Source of the DNA: an uncultured Anaerolineae bacterium
GTDB lineage: Bacteria; Chloroflexota; Anaerolineae; JAFGEY01
Direction: 5' to 3'
Assembly (NCBI GenBank): GCA_964449465.1
Contig: CAYVBK010000015.1
Span: 64,001 to 107,854 of the forward strand
Length of the DNA stretch: 43,854 bases
Below, one piece after another: positions 4,758 to 35,962 of the stretch (position 1 is its first letter; every line of letters starts with the position of its first letter). The notes under the pieces are model-generated. The model worked only from the letters and a program-made list of their open reading frames with translations. It had not been told where the DNA came from and ran no database searches. Both the position numbers and the translations under genes were made by a program.

Positions 4758-4892
4758 CCTATGAGGCCGCTGAAAAAATCTATTTTTACCACAAAGGACA
4801 CTGAGAAAAGTTTTGCAATACTTGAGTTTTTAGGAATGCTTTGTGTCCTTTGTGTCTTGGTGGTGAGGGAGTTTTTCAGCACGCTCCTATGC
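4758..4892 (+). repeat. MITE-like palindromic dispersed repeat, copy A
   Basis: Termini read cctatgaggccgctgaaaaa ... tttttcagcacgctcctatg. Internal arms are ccacaaaggacac / gtgtcctttgtg. It is ~90% identical to copies at 17212-17349 (reverse orientation) and 23297-23436. The ORF 4761..5042 overlaps it and is rejected. Confidence 0.8.
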
Positions 4893-17211: not shown

Positions 17212-17349
17212 CTAGGAGCGTGCTGAAAAACCCGCTCACCACCAAGACACAAAGAGCACAAAGCATTTTTAGCGACTCAAAAGTATCGTAAACCTTTGTG
17301 TTCTCGGTGTCCTTTGTGGTAAAAATAGACTTTTTCAGCGGTCTCCTAG
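17212..17349 (-). repeat. MITE-like palindromic dispersed repeat, copy B (reverse orientation)
   Basis: ctaggagcgtgctgaaaaa...tttttcagcggtctcctag. About 90% identical to the reverse complement of copy C. Sits in the divergent promoter region between the thioesterase and aspartate aminotransferase genes. Confidence 0.8.
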
Positions 17350-22892: not shown

Positions 22893-23300
22893 ATGATGTT
22901 GAACAAATGGGTTTTGTGTCTCGGCCTGGTCATTGTACTGTTGGGCGTTTCGGCCTGCGGCTCGGCCAAAACGGCCGAGATCAAACTGGGCGCAGGCGAT
23001 GATGGGCGCGAGATCGAGCTCAAGCAGGGGCAGGTGATGGCGATCAGTCTGGATAGCAACCCCACTACCGGCTATAGTTGGGCGGCCGTAGACCTGGATG
23101 AGGCCATTCTCCAGTCGGAGGGCGAGGCCGAGTTCAAATCGGAGAGACAGCCGGGAGTGGTGGGCGCCGGCGGCGTCGAAACACTGCGCTTCAAGGCAGT
23201 GAGCACGGGCAAGGTCACGCTCAAGCTGGCCTACCGCCGCTCTTGGGAGCAAAACGTCGAGCCGATCCAGACCTGGAGCGTCTCGGTCATAGTGCGCTAG
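22893..23300 (+). CDS. Chagasin-family (MEROPS I42) cysteine-peptidase inhibitor, lipoprotein
   Basis: Signal plus lipobox LLGVSAC. Conserved chagasin loop motif NPTTGYSW. GGGAGG lies upstream. Confidence 0.8.
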   Translation: MMLNKWVLCLGLVIVLLGVSACGSAKTAEIKLGAGDDGREIELKQGQVMAISLDSNPTTGYSWAAVDLDEAILQSEGEAEFKSERQPGVVGAGGVETLRFKAVSTGKVTLKLAYRRSWEQNVEPIQTWSVSVIVR

Positions 23301-23485
23301 GAGACCGCTGAAAAAGTCTATTTTTACCACAAAGGACACCGAGAACACCAAGACTTACGATACTTTTGGGTCGCTAGAAATGCTTTGTGTCCTTTGTGTC
23401 TTGGTGGTGAGAGGTTTTTTCAGCACGCTCCTAGGGAGGCCGCTGAAAAAGTCGGTTTTCATCACAAAGAACACCCAAGAGGCAA
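23297..23485 (+). repeat. MITE-like palindromic dispersed repeat, copy C (full copy 23297-23436 plus adjacent half-copy 23437-23485)
   Basis: ctaggagaccgctgaaaaagtctatttttaccacaaaggacac...gtgtcctttgtgtcttggtggtgag...ttttttcagcacgctcctagg, followed by a second left arm gaggccgctgaaaaagtcggttttcatcacaaagaacac. Lies between convergent genes. The ORFs 23380..23757 and 23385..23714 are rejected. Confidence 0.8.
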
Positions 23486-26504: not shown

Positions 26505-26756
26505 ATGATGAATCTGGACACGTATATGCCTTCAACTTATCGCGCGTTCATTTTGCGGATGTGGACAGAGCAAGACACGTTTGATGCCATGTCGCCGCCA
26601 TTGTGGCGTTTTAGCCTGGAGAGCATCGGAACACAGGAGGAGCCATCATCAGAGCGGCGCGGTTTTGCCAGCGTAGAAGAACTGCTGGCGTATGTGCAGG
26701 AATTGGCCCTCGCCAATTCGGCTGGGGATAAATCTATTATTCAGGAGGTCAAATGA
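26505..26756 (+). CDS. Small hypothetical protein (83 aa), translationally coupled to downstream giant secreted protein
   Basis: GGGAGAGG RBS followed by an ATG ATG start. The stop TGA overlaps ATG 26753 of the next gene (ATGA). No Cys residues and no signal peptide. Confidence 0.5.
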   Translation: MMNLDTYMPSTYRAFILRMWTEQDTFDAMSPPLWRFSLESIGTQEEPSSERRGFASVEELLAYVQELALANSAGDKSIIQEVK

Positions 26757-29704
26757 TGAAAACTCGTCAGAAATGGATGTGTATGGTATTGATTGGCTTG
26801 TTTGTGTTGGGCCTGGCGTCGTCCGAGTTTGCGCCAATGCGCGCGCCCGTCGCGGCCGCGCCGCCTTGGGCTGCACCGCAAGCGGCGACAGGGACTCTTA
26901 CCGTGACCAGCCTGGCCGACTCGACGGCGAATGACGGCTATTGCACACTGCGCGAGGCGATCATCAATGCCAACAATAACGCGGCTACCTGGCCCGACTG
27001 CCCCGCCGGCAGCGGGCTAGACGTGATTGATTTGACCAGCTTGAGCGGGCAGATTACCTTGCTCGCCAACCTGCCGGAATTGACCGACCCCGCCGGCTTG
27101 TCCGTGCAAGGCCCCGGCGCAGCAACGCTGGCGATCAGTGGCAACGATGCATACCGCATGTTTCGGGTCTTTCAGGATAACCCGCCCATTGATGGGCCGC
27201 TTACAGTGCGCGATTTGACCTTGCGGAACGCCAAAGGGGATAATCCTGGCAGCGTGATTCGCACGCCCAGTGGGAGCGCCGTAGAGGTGTGGAACAGCGT
27301 CATCATCAGCAACACCCACAGCGCCATTTATATTGCGGGCGGCAGCTTGAAGGTGAGCCACACCACGTTTAGCGGCAACACAACCACCGGCGCCGGCGGC
27401 GCCATCCAGGCCGTCAACAACTTTCAGGCTGCGCAGCCGGCCCCCACTGTATGGGTAGATGCTTCCACCTTTATCCGCAACCAGGCGGGTGCCGGCCATG
27501 CGATTGATCAAAACAGCGGCAGCCTGATGCTTGACAACAGCCTGTTTCAGAAGAACGGTGTCACCACCAGCGACGGCTATGGCACGGTGAATTACAGTGG
27601 GAATATGGACATTGTCGTGACAAACTGCCAGTTTCAGGGTAATCAGACCCGGCAGGGCGGCGCGCTGCACGATGCCGGGGGCATGGGCGTAGTCTATATT
27701 GAAAACAGCCGGTTCATCAGCAACACGACGGGGTATACTGCCGGCGTCATTCGCAGCGGCGGCGGGCGCGCCCTCGACATCCGCCGCAGCCTGTTTGTGG
27801 AAAATATGACGACAGAAAAGGGCGGCGTAATTTACAGCTATGCGCCCATCACGGTTACCGCCAGTGCCTTTTATAGCAACACGGCCGGTTATATGGGCGG
27901 CGTGATTATGACGGAAAACGACGCCACCGGCCCGATTACGATCTTGAACAGTCTGTTCCAGAGCAATCACGCCGAGTGGGGCGGCGCGATCTGGTTTGGG
28001 CGTGGTCTATATGTGACAAATACCACCTTTTACACCAACACGGCAGGGTATGCCGGCGGCGCACTGGCCTCGTTTGAGGGCTGGGGCGAAATCAACAACA
28101 GCACCTTCGATCACAACGGGGCCGCCAACGGTGCCGCCTTGTATTTTAGTAACGGCTGGGCGCCACCGATCACGTTGCGCAATACCATCATTGCCAACCC
28201 GTTATGGGGCAACAATTGTCATACCTATACCGGCTCGTACACTGACGGCGGCAATAATCTGCAATACCCCGGCACCAGTTGCAATGCAGCGATCCCAGAA
28301 CTGAATCCGCTGTTAGACCCTGCCGGCCCGCAGGATAACGGCGGCCCCACCTGGACAATTGCGCTGCAAGCCGGCAGCCCGGCGATTGATCGGATCCCGA
28401 CCGGTGGCGTTTGCCCGGCGACCGATCAACGCGGCGCGCCTCGCCCGGTGGACGGCGATGGGGTCGGCGCGGCCGATTGCGACAGCGGCGCGTATGAATA
28501 CGGCAGCGTCGGCCCGGTCACGCTCAGCAAGACGGCGGTGGACGCAAACGGCACACCGCTCAAACCCGGCGACACCATCTCTTACACCGTGCGCGTCGAG
28601 AACACCTTCCCGGCCGCGGTGACCGGCGTGATCGTCACGGACACGATCCCGGCCTACACCACCTACATCCCAGGTTCCGCCGTTCCGCCGGCGACCAGGG
28701 TGGAGAACGTGTTGGTGTGGAGCGGTTTGAGTCTGACGGCCAAACAGGTGCAAACACTCACCCTGGCTGTGACGGTGAACGAGAACGCCGGCGGTCAGGT
28801 GATCAACAATGTGGCCTGTACAGTGCAGCCAGGGGTGTCACAGACCTGCACGCAGCCCGTCACCCCGGCCGGCCCGGATGGCGGCACCGTCACGCCGGTG
28901 TTGGCCTTGGGCAAGACGGCGTTGGACGTGAACGGCGCACCGCTGCTGCCCGGCGACACAATCCGCTATACCATCCAGGTGACAAACAGCCATGCCGTCA
29001 CCGTCACCGGCTTTACACTCCAAGATGCCATCCCCGCGTACACCACCTATGTGGCCAACTCGGACACGCCCGAAGCCGATGCGGACGCCGACCCGTTGGT
29101 CTGGAGCAATCAGACCATTCCGCCGGGCGTCAAGACATACACATTCGAGGTGACCATCAATGCCAACGCCGGTGGACAGAGCATTGCCAACATGGCTTGC
29201 CTGACTCAACAGGGGCTGACGCAGGCCTGTACCCAACCGGTGACACCGCCTGGCGCACCAGGGAGCACGGTTGTGCCAGTGTTGGCCTTGGGCAAGGCGG
29301 CGTTGGACGTAAACGGCACGCCGCTGCTGCCCGGCGACACAATCCGCTATACCATCCAGGTGACGAATCCGCACAGCGTTGACGTATCGGGTGTCGTCAT
29401 CAGCGATGTGATTCCGGCGTATACCACCTACGCGCCCAACTCGGACACGCCCGAAGCGGATGCAGATGCCGACCCGTTGGTCTGGAACAATCAGACCATT
29501 CCGCCGGGTGTCAAGACATACACATTTGAGATCACTGTGAATGTCGGTGCGGTAGGACAAACGATTCGGAATCGAGCTGTGATGCGGCAGCCAGGTCTGA
29601 CAGAGCCAGGCATGACGCCTTGGGTTGAACCATCGGGCGGGGGGCTGGTAAAACAGCTGGTGTATCTGCCGCTGGCGATCAAAGACCTGTCTATGCAACC
29701 ATAA
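26753..29704 (+). CDS. Large secreted protein: signal peptide, CSLREA-like N-terminal motif, right-handed parallel beta-helix repeats, 3 tandem DUF11 (conserved repeat) domains
   Basis: Signal MMKTRQKWMCMVLIGLFVLGLASS. GYCTLREAIINAN matches the CSLREA-domain motif. Gly/Asn/Thr-rich PbH1-like repeats follow. Three ~127-aa repeats carry LKPGDTI(S/R)YT. Confidence 0.8.
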   Translation: MMKTRQKWMCMVLIGLFVLGLASSEFAPMRAPVAAAPPWAAPQAATGTLTVTSLADSTANDGYCTLREAIINANNNAATWPDCPAGSGLDVIDLTSLSGQITLLANLPELTDPAGLSVQGPGAATLAISGNDAYRMFRVFQDNPPIDGPLTVRDLTLRNAKGDNPGSVIRTPSGSAVEVWNSVIISNTHSAIYIAGGSLKVSHTTFSGNTTTGAGGAIQAVNNFQAAQPAPTVWVDASTFIRNQAGAGHAIDQNSGSLMLDNSLFQKNGVTTSDGYGTVNYSGNMDIVVTNCQFQGNQTRQGGALHDAGGMGVVYIENSRFISNTTGYTAGVIRSGGGRALDIRRSLFVENMTTEKGGVIYSYAPITVTASAFYSNTAGYMGGVIMTENDATGPITILNSLFQSNHAEWGGAIWFGRGLYVTNTTFYTNTAGYAGGALASFEGWGEINNSTFDHNGAANGAALYFSNGWAPPITLRNTIIANPLWGNNCHTYTGSYTDGGNNLQYPGTSCNAAIPELNPLLDPAGPQDNGGPTWTIALQAGSPAIDRIPTGGVCPATDQRGAPRPVDGDGVGAADCDSGAYEYGSVGPVTLSKTAVDANGTPLKPGDTISYTVRVENTFPAAVTGVIVTDTIPAYTTYIPGSAVPPATRVENVLVWSGLSLTAKQVQTLTLAVTVNENAGGQVINNVACTVQPGVSQTCTQPVTPAGPDGGTVTPVLALGKTALDVNGAPLLPGDTIRYTIQVTNSHAVTVTGFTLQDAIPAYTTYVANSDTPEADADADPLVWSNQTIPPGVKTYTFEVTINANAGGQSIANMACLTQQGLTQACTQPVTPPGAPGSTVVPVLALGKAALDVNGTPLLPGDTIRYTIQVTNPHSVDVSGVVISDVIPAYTTYAPNSDTPEADADADPLVWNNQTIPPGVKTYTFEITVNVGAVGQTIRNRAVMRQPGLTEPGMTPWVEPSGGGLVKQLVYLPLAIKDLSMQP
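28515..29650 (+). repeat. Intragenic tandem DNA repeat, 3 units of ~381 bp (DUF11 modules); units 2 and 3 ~90% identical
   Basis: ccggtgttggccttgggcaagacggcgttggacgtgaacggc at 28895 matches ccagtgttggccttgggcaaggcggcgttggacgtaaacggc at 29276, a period of 381 bp. Confidence 0.8.
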
Positions 29705-33906: not shown

Positions 33907-35517
33907 TCAGAACCCAGGCTGAACGGCTTGCCCCTGCCCCTCGACCAGCCAGCGATAGGTTTTCTCGATGCGATCCCAATGGTGTTCCCGGTCGAGGGCC
34001 CAAAAGCGGCCAATGACGCCGGCGCATTGCCCCACACCCAACCGGTCACACTCGGCCTCGATCTCGTTGACATACAGCGCGCCGCTTTCCGGCTTTTCGC
34101 CGCGCCGCCCCAACAGGCCATGCACATAGACCTCTGACAAGCCCTCTTGTTTAGCCATACGCAGCAGGGCCTTGAGGTGTTCGACCGAGCCGTGCGAGCT
34201 GTAGAATGAGATGATGCCCAACAGATGCAGGCGCACACCATCGCGCCGGGCTCCTTGCATGGCCCAGAGAAAGGCCGGATTTTGGAAAAAGCTGCCGTCG
34301 GCGATGGCCCGTTCGATACGCAGCCGGTCGGACGGCACCACCCGTCCTGCGCCCAAATGCATGTGTCCCACCTCTGAATTGCCCACCGTCTTGCCTGGCC
34401 GCCCCGGCACGGTGTTGGGCAGGCCCACGGCCTCGCCGGCGGCCTCGATGCGGGTAGCAGGAAAATCGCGCTGGATGGCGTCCATCGTGGGCGTGTCGGC
34501 CTCCCAGATCAGGTTGCCCCAGGTGTCGTCGCGCGCCCCCCAGCCATCGAGGATCAGCAGGGCCACGCGGATGGGCGGCAGGTCGGCCGGCGGGTGGACG
34601 ATCAGCGGCGCGCCGGTCATGGCCGCCGGGCGGGGGATGCCTAACAGGTGCAGCGCGGTGGGGGCCACGTCGGTCAGACCGCCGTCGTTACGCAGCGATG
34701 CGTGGCGCAGCGGATGGCCGGGCGGCGATACCAGCACAAACGGCACCGGGCTGTCGGTGTGACCGGTGTCAATGGTGCCGTCTTCATAATACCACTTTTC
34801 CACCGTGCCATGGTCGGCTGTGACCAGGACCATGACGCCTTGTTCCTGAGCCGTTTGCAGTACACGGCCAAGCTGACGATCTACGGCCGAGACGGCCTGC
34901 TTGATCCGCTCCTTGTCTTCGCTGTGACCGATCACGTCGGTGTTGGCCCAGTTGACCACGATCAGGTGCCAGGTAGGGTCGCGCAAGGCCTCTATGGCTG
35001 CATCGGCGACCTCTTGGGCGCACATTTCGGGCAGCGGCCAATAACCCTCGAACGGGCGCGAGGGGATGATGCGCCAGGTTTCGCCAGGAAACGGATCGTT
35101 GCGTTTGCCGTTGAGGAAATAGGTTACATGCACCCCTTTTTCCGACTCGACGATCTTGATCTGGCGGCGACCGGCGCGGCTGACCGTCTCGCTCAAAGTG
35201 TCGTGGAGAATGCCCAGCGGCGGAAAGGCCACATGCTCCACCAGGCCGGGCCGGTATTCGATCATAGTAGCCCAGTGCGTTTGGATGGGTGAGCGGGGGA
35301 AATGGGGAAATTCGCTGCCGACAAAGGCCTCGGTCAGCTCGATCTCGCGTTCGCCGCGAATGTCGTCAAAAATCACATAATCGCCGTTTTGGATGCGACC
35401 AACCGGCTGCCCATCGGGGCCAGCCAGGAGCAGCGGTTCCATCGTTTCGTCATCCTGGCCGGCGCGGTAGGCCTCGCGGATGGCCTGAGCGATGGGAAAG
35501 AACAAAGAATTGGACAT
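33907..35517 (-). CDS. Cofactor-independent phosphoglycerate mutase (iPGM/GpmI family), circularly permuted domain order
   Basis: Residues 1-~295 align to the C-terminal half of GpmI (IFxxxRxDRxRE, AFPP, ETEKxxHVTFFxNG, NxxNxDMVGH, TADHGN, EMTG...L). Residues ~305-536 align to the N-terminal half (LLILDGWG, MGNSEVGH, AMDRDxRWDR). Start ATG 35517 with AGGAG 6 nt upstream. Confidence 0.85.
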   Translation of the reverse strand: MSNSLFFPIAQAIREAYRAGQDDETMEPLLLAGPDGQPVGRIQNGDYVIFDDIRGEREIELTEAFVGSEFPHFPRSPIQTHWATMIEYRPGLVEHVAFPPLGILHDTLSETVSRAGRRQIKIVESEKGVHVTYFLNGKRNDPFPGETWRIIPSRPFEGYWPLPEMCAQEVADAAIEALRDPTWHLIVVNWANTDVIGHSEDKERIKQAVSAVDRQLGRVLQTAQEQGVMVLVTADHGTVEKWYYEDGTIDTGHTDSPVPFVLVSPPGHPLRHASLRNDGGLTDVAPTALHLLGIPRPAAMTGAPLIVHPPADLPPIRVALLILDGWGARDDTWGNLIWEADTPTMDAIQRDFPATRIEAAGEAVGLPNTVPGRPGKTVGNSEVGHMHLGAGRVVPSDRLRIERAIADGSFFQNPAFLWAMQGARRDGVRLHLLGIISFYSSHGSVEHLKALLRMAKQEGLSEVYVHGLLGRRGEKPESGALYVNEIEAECDRLGVGQCAGVIGRFWALDREHHWDRIEKTYRWLVEGQGQAVQPGF

Positions 35518-35523
35518 GATACA

Positions 35524-35700
35524 CTCCTGAGTCCACTGAAAAAACCACCAAGAACACCAAGTACACGAAGAAAGTCAAGACTTGCATTAATTATTTCAAT
35601 ATTGTATTTGAACAATTTCAAGCTCAACCTGAATTTTCTTTGTGACCTTTGTGTTCTTTGTGGTTAAATCCACCTTTTTTCAGGAGAGTCACTCCTGAGT
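35524..35700 (+). repeat. MITE-like palindromic dispersed repeat, copy D (diverged, longer AT-rich centre)
   Basis: actcctgagtccactgaaaaaaccaccaagaacaccaag...ctttgtgacctttgtgttctttgtgg...ttttttcaggagagtcactcctgagt. The iPGM RBS lies within its left terminal repeat. Confidence 0.7.
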
Positions 35701-35772
35701 TTGAAAAAGATGCGACACATTGTATCACATCCATCTCTGGGCGGCAATTGCGAGGTGGTTGAAACAAAAAAA

Positions 35773-35803
35773 GCCCTGGCGGTCATTCTCCAGGGCTGGT
35801 GTT
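35773..35803 (-). terminator. Rho-independent terminator on minus strand (GCCCUGG-loop-CCAGGGC followed by U7)
   Basis: Plus-strand sequence is aaaaaaaGCCCTGG-cggtcattct-CCAGGGC. On the minus strand it is followed by UUUUUUU. It lies 20 nt downstream of the small ORF stop. Confidence 0.7.
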
Positions 35804-35815
35804 TTCAGGCACGAA

Positions 35816-35962
35816 TCATCCCAAAATGATAATCAGGGTTTGCAGCCAGGCTGCCAGACGGCTCTTGTTGGCCGATAAAAAACGACGCGCACTGGCTGCC
35901 TCGCTCAGCAGATCGTCCATCTTGAGCCTGGCCACCTGATTGACCATCCAATAATTATCCAT
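35816..35962 (-). CDS. Small ORF (48 aa) absent from the >=60 aa track: MDNYWMVNQVARLKMDDLLSEAASARRFLSANKSRLAAWLQTLIIILG
   Basis: Strong SD GAAAGGAGG lies 5 nt before the ATG. A strong terminator follows directly. Own promoter 300 nt upstream. Confidence 0.4.
   Translation of the reverse strand: MDNYWMVNQVARLKMDDLLSEAASARRFLSANKSRLAAWLQTLIIILG

Follow-up and report, generated by a model that had tools for sequence, protein, structure and literature searches.

A naturally circularly permuted enzyme of the cofactor-independent phosphoglycerate mutase family in uncultured Anaerolineae

We examined a 43,854-nucleotide stretch of contig CAYVBK010000015.1 (referred to throughout as the window) from an uncultured Anaerolineae bacterium (assembly GCA_964449465.1), in which a minus-strand open reading frame (ORF) with an ATG start codon encodes a 536-residue protein of the cofactor-independent phosphoglycerate mutase (iPGM or GpmI) family. 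The gene stands alone, facing a convergently oriented URO-D-like gene; its other neighbors encode an ABC-2 transporter and VWA proteins, and none of these provided a hint as to its function. Three probes, one apgM, one histidine-phosphatase-family protein, and one canonical iPGM, found no match elsewhere in the window. The iPGMs are textbook hinge-closing two-domain enzymes and are targets for anti-parasite and antibacterial drugs. A reading of the DNA letters alone (the original prediction) had proposed that the two halves of GpmI occur in swapped order within this one ORF. This proved correct: the protein encoded by the window gene has the GpmI/iPGM fold in a naturally permuted, circularly shifted order.

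When the translated ORF was compared with all PDB chains by phmmer, it matched the Bacillus stearothermophilus (Bst) iPGM structure 1EJJ with a whole-sequence E value of 2.3e-111, and it did so in two off-diagonal stretches; residues 11-307 corresponded to chain residues 218-510 (192 bits) and residues 318-531 to chain residues 6-212 (183 bits). The same two-stretch, off-diagonal match was obtained with 11/11 iPGM entries, and no PDB chain with the permuted order was found. Similarly, when a canonical iPGM (P0128) was used as the tblastn query on the window, its residues 217-510 fell at 35487-34594 and its residues 4-211 at 34569-33922. The co-linear order Phos(N)-Transferase-Phos(C) of every PDB iPGM and of P0128 is therefore not that of the window protein, and the alignment to Bst iPGM that had been suggested as a check rules out colinearity. 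Pfam nevertheless recognized both iPGM domains, the phosphatase domain of alkaline-phosphatase-like type (Metalloenzyme, PF01676, 168.5 bits) and the transferase domain specific to iPGM (iPGM_N, PF06415, 169.7 bits), each split over two stretches. Among the NCBIfam profiles, TIGR01307 was passed at 429.4 bits (cut-off, 330.65), a score that for the window protein is the sum over two stretches; no NCBIfam model specific to the permuted form was found. Identity to canonical iPGM is 36 to 42% within each block, and all of the GpmI motifs named in the original prediction are present in the translation. The two-block pattern is far beyond chance. Independent assemblies show it as well, as do hundreds of orthologues (see below).

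Canonical iPGMs consist of a phosphatase domain and a transferase domain linked by two hinge peptides (PMC5382265). The window protein begins 10 residues before the position of Bst 218; at its other end, the alignment stops at Bst 210 and is followed by a 7-residue tail, and residue mapping puts the new C terminus at about Bst 210-212. We take the Bst domain limits to be residues 1-76 and 311-511 for the phosphatase domain and 77-310 for the transferase domain, which is consistent with the Pfam stretches. The new termini had been expected near the boundary between the two domains. Our mapping instead places the cut in the middle of the transferase domain, apparently in a loop, because the termini lie at about Bst 212/218 and because the stretch of iPGM_N at residues 401-531 covers profile positions 1-131 of 217. 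By this mapping, it is the phosphatase domain that has been made contiguous and the transferase domain that has been split. The canonical order Phos(N)-hinge-Transferase-hinge-Phos(C) has become Transferase(C half)-hinge-Phos(C)-linker-Phos(N)-hinge-Transferase(N half), with both interdomain hinges kept; the domain coordinates (Table 1) were verified by translation. The short linker that had been predicted is indeed there and spans the old termini with about 10 residues. Apart from the permutation at about 212/218, this linker, and a 7-residue insertion ahead of GNSEVGH (seen in the 1EJJ alignment), the protein resembles canonical iPGM (GpmI/GpmM; Bst structures 1EJJ, 1EQJ, and 1O98) in having PF01676 and PF06415, two hinges, the Ser nucleophile, six metal ligands, and the His, Arg, and Lys substrate residues.

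Table 1. Features of the permuted gene and its 5' leader (window coordinates; Bst residues are those of B. stearothermophilus iPGM)
Feature	Position	Strand	Basis
Permuted iPGM-family coding sequence, complete; 536 aa plus stop codon (33907-33909)	33907..35517	minus	ORF list, PDB phmmer, Pfam/NCBIfam, translation check
C-terminal part of transferase domain, residues 1-100 (about Bst 208-310); R54, R57 = Bst R261, R264	35218..35517	minus	1EJJ alignment, residue mapping, translation
C-terminal part of phosphatase domain, residues 101-307; K127, D194, H198, D235, H236, H253 = Bst K336, D403, H407, D444, H445, H462	34597..35217	minus	Pfam, 1EJJ alignment, mapping, translation
Linker HPPADLPPIR, residues 308-317, joining ancestral C terminus (Bst 510) to ancestral N terminus (Bst 6)	34567..34596	minus	Between aligned blocks
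N-terminal part of phosphatase domain, residues 318-395; D324 = Bst D12, nucleophile S381 = Bst S62, H385 = Bst H66	34333..34566	minus	1EJJ alignment, mapping, translation
N-terminal part of transferase domain, residues 396-536 (about Bst 77-212); H442, R472, R504, R510 = Bst H123, R153, R185, R191; altered motifs SFYSSHGS, LGRRGE	33910..34332	minus	Pfam, 1EJJ alignment, mapping, motif comparison, translation
Proximal copy of 11-bp direct repeat CACTCCTGAGT, holding the Shine-Dalgarno sequence AGGAG (35524-35528, 6 nt before ATG)	35522..35532	minus	Sequence; orthologue spacing
157-bp AT-rich (34% GC) palindromic MITE-like element in 5' leader	35533..35689		Terminal inverted repeats, similarity to window copies
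Distal copy of direct repeat CACTCCTGAGT, target-site duplication	35690..35700	minus	Sequence
Promoter-like site TTGCCG-17-TG-TACAAT, just upstream of MITE insertion point	35719..35747	minus	Consensus scan

Structure prediction and superposition, also suggested with the original prediction, gave a partial answer. The AlphaFold2 model, built with an alignment of 36 orthologues, was confident (predicted local distance difference test [pLDDT], 80.4; predicted template modeling score, 0.81), and this extended to the linker region, with pLDDT values of 85 to 89 in two 10-residue blocks over residues 301-320. The top 21 Foldseek matches of the model were all iPGM structures, the best being 1EJJ (E = 1.5e-15; root mean square deviation, 3.1 Å over 301 columns; 36% identity; TM score, 0.49). 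The superposition spans one block only, because Foldseek is a sequential aligner and only one permuted block (ca. 300 columns) is alignable by it. Taken with the confident linker, the model suggests that the permutant would close into the iPGM fold.

The permuted gene is by no means confined to the window. The identical 536-aa protein occurs on five other contigs, from NCBI and Logan sources, in a collection of 15 billion proteins; the two of these contigs that were shown come from different sequencing runs (ERR4539747 and ERR4539745), and both stop 40 nt upstream of the ATG, within a repeat resembling a miniature inverted-repeat transposable element (MITE). The search for orthologues with the same permutation that had been proposed was productive: among 5.8 billion proteins we found at least 120 protein clusters with 68 to 78% identity and 95 to 100% coverage in a single alignment, the permuted order being present in 120/120 listed clusters, and two family-specific peptides, when used to scan the species-representative genomes of GTDB, returned 213 encoding stretches. 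The best 80 of these 213 (55 to 75% identity) are nearly all from metagenome-assembled genomes (MAGs) of Anaerolineae, Anaerolineales, Thermoflexales, or Ardenticatenales, with a minority binned as Planctomycetota, Phycisphaerae, Myxococcota, Desulfobacterales (Desulfobacterota), or Eisenbacteria. One orthologue (UCC65231.1) lies on a 4.87-Mb single-contig MAG (CP070818.1). Across 36 orthologues, mean column identity is 71% and all catalytic residues are invariant. Further afield, the best 150 matches among 1.84 billion 50%-identity representatives comprised 19 permuted and 131 canonical sequences; the distant permuted representatives are 35 to 53% identical to the window protein and have the same breakpoints, with 7- to 11-residue linkers. 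Because the same breakpoints recur at such low identity, the permutation must long predate the source genome, and judged by these comparisons, it is old and common to hundreds of mostly uncultured Anaerolineae species. The original prediction knew of no description of a permuted iPGM, and we likewise found none in the searchable (full-text) literature. Public names vary within this one orthologous family: in the clusters of P0043 and P0058, some members are called “alkaline phosphatase family protein” or “sulfatase-like hydrolase/transferase,” and others [quoted passage not shown]

These data bear on three other explanations of the swapped order. One, foreseen in the original prediction, is an assembly artifact produced by the collapse or misjoining of a tandem duplication of a normal gpmI. 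Nothing was found in favor of this, a theoretical concern that stems from the origin of permutations in tandem duplication, and we regard it as refuted, given the identical protein on further contigs (including the two from separate runs), the hundreds of independently assembled orthologues with the same order, the gene on the 4.87-Mb single contig, and the family-specific conservation of the linker and termini. It is also very improbable that the gene is a decaying, nonfunctional relic of an iPGM duplication; the unusual order is all that would suggest this, and against it stand an intact ORF with a Shine-Dalgarno (SD) sequence, the conservation and catalytic invariance seen in the 36 orthologues, and the confident structural model. 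Finally, a MITE-like element lies right next to the region of the start codon (Table 1), and the original prediction had seen in it a hint of local rearrangement. A recent rearrangement driven by this element has a negligible chance of being correct: what is seen is a plain insertion, flanked by an 11-bp target-site duplication, that left the coding sequence untouched, orthologues without it are permuted identically, and the permutation is shared by sequences that are less than 50% identical.

Natural circular permutants are found in other families, e.g., transaldolases, DNA methyltransferases, glucansucrases, and saposin/swaposin, and are believed to originate when a gene is duplicated in tandem and both ends are then lost. 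No tandem-duplication intermediates were found; the extensions of the longer iPGM representatives (P0126, P0147, P0168, and P0203) are without iPGM similarity. A predicted protein of 5027 aa (P0139), probably the product of a run-on gene model or one of eukaryotic style, has a permuted iPGM module at residues 3858-4372. The window protein is like the other natural permutants in that the same fold is built from a rearranged sequence order. Unlike them, it is cut within a single domain of an enzyme whose two domains close about a hinge, so that which domain is contiguous has been swapped.

The permuted sequences fall into three groups. Group A is the window's own clade and carries the motifs SFYSSHGS and LGRRGEKPESG; group B (P0123-like) has SSHG and DGRS; and group C (P0125, P0127, and P0145) keeps every canonical motif, including GVHS and DGRD. 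Breakpoints and linker length in groups B and C are identical to those of the window protein, and in all permuted groups the linkers (7 to 11 residues) occupy the same position, although their sequences are unrelated. We built neighbor-joining trees on de-permuted alignments of 153 sequences (100 replicates) and 93 sequences (200 replicates). Clade A was recovered in 200/200 replicates of the 93-sequence tree and clade A+B in 96/100 (153 sequences) and 198/200 (93 sequences), while a clade of all permuted sequences (A+B+C) appeared in only 1/100 and 1/200, respectively. Group C, which unlike group A has canonical motifs, thus lies outside A+B in these trees; identity within group C, as between this group and canonical enzymes, is about 50%, a level at which the tree is star-like. 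The trees do not decide between one origin of the permutation and several at the same loop. We refer to A+B as the SSHG clade, defined here by an N terminus 2 to 17 residues before Bst 218, a C terminus at about Bst 208-212 with a short tail beyond it, and a linker of 7 to 11 residues. The window protein falls within these limits, has S-S-H-G at Bst 121-124 and replacements at D154, N259, D263, G409, and N447, and clusters within the clade. Group B shares with group A the SSHG motif, the loss of D154, and the changes at N259 and N447.

For the active site, we worked from the residues of Bst iPGM, with the roles of D154 and other residues also judged by conservation statistics. Fifteen of the 16 residues checked are identical in the window protein (D12, S62, H66, H123, R153, R185, R191, R261, R264, K336, D403, H407, D444, H445, and H462 in Bst numbering); only D154 differs, its counterpart being G473. 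The Ser nucleophile and the six metal ligands (S381, D324, D194, H198, D235, H236, and H253, corresponding to Bst S62, D12, D403, H407, D444, H445, and H462) are invariant in the 36 orthologues. Seven of the eight substrate residues are kept (H123, R153, R185, R191, R261, R264, and K336), and D154 is lost; this position is D in 125/130 canonical representatives and G or S across the A+B clade. Compared with the 130 canonical sequences, the A+B clade also shows N259 replaced by D or C, D263 by E, M189 by L, G409 by E or P, N447 by T or L, and G121-V122-H-S124 by S-S-H-G; group A alone has G-R for D151-G152 (DGRD to GRRG). In the window's clade, G-G-V-H-S around H123 has become Y-S-S-H-G, with N259 changed to D, G409 to E, and N447 to T, and in the window protein SFYSSHGS and LGRRGE stand in place of the canonical motifs S-D-G-G-V-H-S and D-G-R-D. 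Some of the altered positions are close to invariant in canonical enzymes (D151, 129/130; G152, 129/130), and others are less so (V122, 115/130; G121, 96/130). As far as residue conservation can tell, the phospho-Ser, binuclear-metal, and Arg-cluster chemistry is conserved, and the shell around the substrate is remodeled. ApgM (the archaeal-type iPGM; TIGR00306/PF10143) and the phosphopentomutase DeoB also have an alkaline-phosphatase-like core that combines a binuclear metal site with a nucleophilic Ser or Thr, but their cap domain is different and smaller. Membership of the window protein in either family was rejected, since only residues ca. 167-298 matched, at 32 to 46 bits.

Genomic context was read from flanks of up to 10 kb per locus. 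In 80 group A loci there was no conserved glycolytic or catabolic neighbor; the top neighbor “clusters” were antisense ORFs within the GC-rich gene itself, the lineage-specific neighbors were housekeeping genes (e.g., holB, thrS, truB, and a DHH phosphoesterase), and an apgM probe found no match in the group A flanks. Such a stand-alone housekeeping setting is typical of a central-metabolism gene. In group C, a 4-nt overlap joins the gene for P0127 to the stop codon of pgi, a glucose-6-phosphate isomerase (PGI) gene (L003, 6556-9626), and P0127 scores 592 bits on TIGR01307. This coupling suggests a glycolytic role for at least P0127.

On balance, we favor the view that the window gene encodes a functional, anciently permuted iPGM-family enzyme, which most likely interconverts 3-phosphoglycerate and 2-phosphoglycerate. 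Three points make this reaction appear the most probable one: the residues that hold the substrate are kept, the protein passes TIGR01307, and a glycolytic role is compatible with the permuted topology, as seen in group C. By analogy with iPGM, a binuclear Mn site (D324, D235, and H236; D194, H198, and H253) would activate Ser381, which would take the phosphate from a substrate held by R54, R57, K127, H442, R472, R504, and R510. The glycerate would then reorient, and the phosphate would be returned to the neighboring hydroxyl, the presumed net reaction being 3-phosphoglycerate <-> 2-phosphoglycerate. A number of observations pull the other way, however. The window protein fails the stricter equivalog model NF003897 (344.5 bits versus 862), and NCBI labels its orthologues “alkaline phosphatase family protein” or “sulfatase-like hydrolase/transferase.” Residues that are nearly invariant in canonical enzymes, and that adjoin ligand or substrate residues, are replaced throughout the window's clade. 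In seven group A loci, all from Anaerolineales MAGs (L063, L066, L080, L081, L083, L084, and L086), a 208-aa histidine-phosphatase gene follows downstream, abutting or overlapping the group A stop codon by a few nucleotides (e.g., L081, 2410-3036); its product resembles TIGR03848 (“MSMEG_4193 family putative phosphomutase”), at 186 bits, which is below the cut-off of 204. The group B gene, moreover, is embedded in a conserved HAD-HAD-permuted-apgM-kinase operon, as read in relatives of P0123 at 80 metagenome loci (L091-L170) and L006. There, uxaE and a lacI-type gene are divergent from a series encoding two HAD proteins, the permuted enzyme, ApgM, a ca. 400-aa PRK-like kinase, and MFS, RpiR, and ABC transporter proteins (e.g., L108, 3653-17375). 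A HAD gene lies directly upstream of the permuted gene in 51/58 loci, and apgM lies within 3 kb downstream in 39/48. This apgM is the equivalog (NF003160, 573 bits versus 468), so that two different cofactor-independent phosphoglycerate mutase-type genes sit side by side, which argues against simple redundancy there.

These same observations could be explained if the SSHG clade were a neofunctionalized paralogue that keeps the phospho-Ser/Mn chemistry and acts on another phospho-acid or sugar phosphate, or mainly as a phosphatase, and is not the cell's glycolytic phosphoglycerate mutase. We take this possibility seriously while doubting that it is correct. The substitutions at near-invariant, active-site-adjacent positions are coherent across the whole A+B clade, and that clade is robust (198/200 bootstraps). 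The group B operon, with its two HAD phosphatases, apgM equivalog, PRK-like kinase, LacI and RpiR regulators, UxaE/KduI, and transporters, speaks for this reading, as does the histidine-phosphatase gene coupled downstream in seven group A loci; the scatter of group A over MAGs binned as Planctomycetota, Myxococcota, Desulfobacterota, and Eisenbacteria resembles the pattern of an accessory gene, and the inconsistent automatic annotation of the orthologues points the same way. However, the Arg, Lys, and His residues that hold phosphoglycerate in Bst iPGM are all retained, TIGR01307 is passed, and group A is without a dedicated catabolic context. It may also be that the group B operon simply holds true phosphoglycerate mutases and that the taxonomic scatter reflects binning errors.

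One further, more speculative possibility, which we regard as unlikely, is that the SSHG clade represents an unrecognized family that split from iPGM after the permutation and acts on another phospho-metabolite, that the group B operon encodes a new organophosphate or sugar-acid pathway, and that the loop was perhaps permuted more than once. Repeated permutation of the same loop is conceivable, since in the trees group C stays apart from A+B. If the substrate has indeed changed, the family and the group B operon would point to an undescribed phospho-metabolite pathway. Whatever the substrate, a large natural clade with a cut transferase domain and a contiguous phosphatase domain bears on the role of topology in domain closure and folding, and may serve as a ready-made template for engineering. 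In addition, given the inconsistent names in use, metabolic reconstructions of Anaerolineae and other MAGs may miss or misassign phosphoglycerate mutase.

The leader of the window gene merits separate comment. The element upstream of the start codon has the features of a MITE (it is short, noncoding, and multicopy, with terminal inverted repeats and a target-site duplication). It shares the termini CTGAAAAA...ACCACAAAGRACAC with copies at 4759-4889, 17212-17349, and 23297-23480 and is a diverged relative of these, with low identity to the other window copies. The original prediction had the MITE supplying the SD of the gene. Instead, the SD lies within the 11-bp target-site duplication, and in orthologues that lack the element, a native (C/T)AGGAG is found at this spacing; the element was inserted later into the leader, duplicating an SD-containing target, and is unrelated to the permutation. 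The insertion, between the promoter-like site and the start codon, lengthened the leader by 168 nt, and as RNA the element would fold, immediately 5' of the SD, into a long and strong hairpin (-66.4 kcal/mol; z = -5.2). The promoter-like site is weak evidence alone, the consensus scan having found one site versus 1.1 expected by chance; the orthologue at L011 has TACAAT at the equivalent place. We envisage that the gene would be transcribed singly, with a promoter-like site of its own, the MITE being a later arrival in its 5' leader. Immediately upstream of the promoter-like site (35766-35961, minus strand) are an ORF of about 48 aa and then a GC-rich hairpin and T-run (ccagccctgg...ccagggcttttttt), which probably isolates the gene transcriptionally.

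The window also contains a MITE family of ca. 130 bp, present in 3 to 4 intergenic copies that are 87 to 93% identical (4759-4889; 17212-17349, reverse; 23297-23434; and 23432-23480) and have the termini CTAGGAGxCCGCTGAAAAA...TTTTTCAGCACGCTCCTAG; the segment at 23297-23480 holds a full copy and, after it, a partial one. Two other repeats were seen. Within the ORF at 26753-29704, two pairs of direct repeats of about 155 to 162 nt (28832-29566) lie 381 nt apart with 81 to 82% identity, and because this ORF is a 983-aa DUF11/DUF7507 surface-protein gene, we read them as tandem domain repeats. Downstream of the first ORF, the intergenic segment at 1833-1921 holds a pair of 38-nt repeats that lie 51 nt apart, share 89% identity, and each contain a short palindrome (CCCGAACTTGTTCG).

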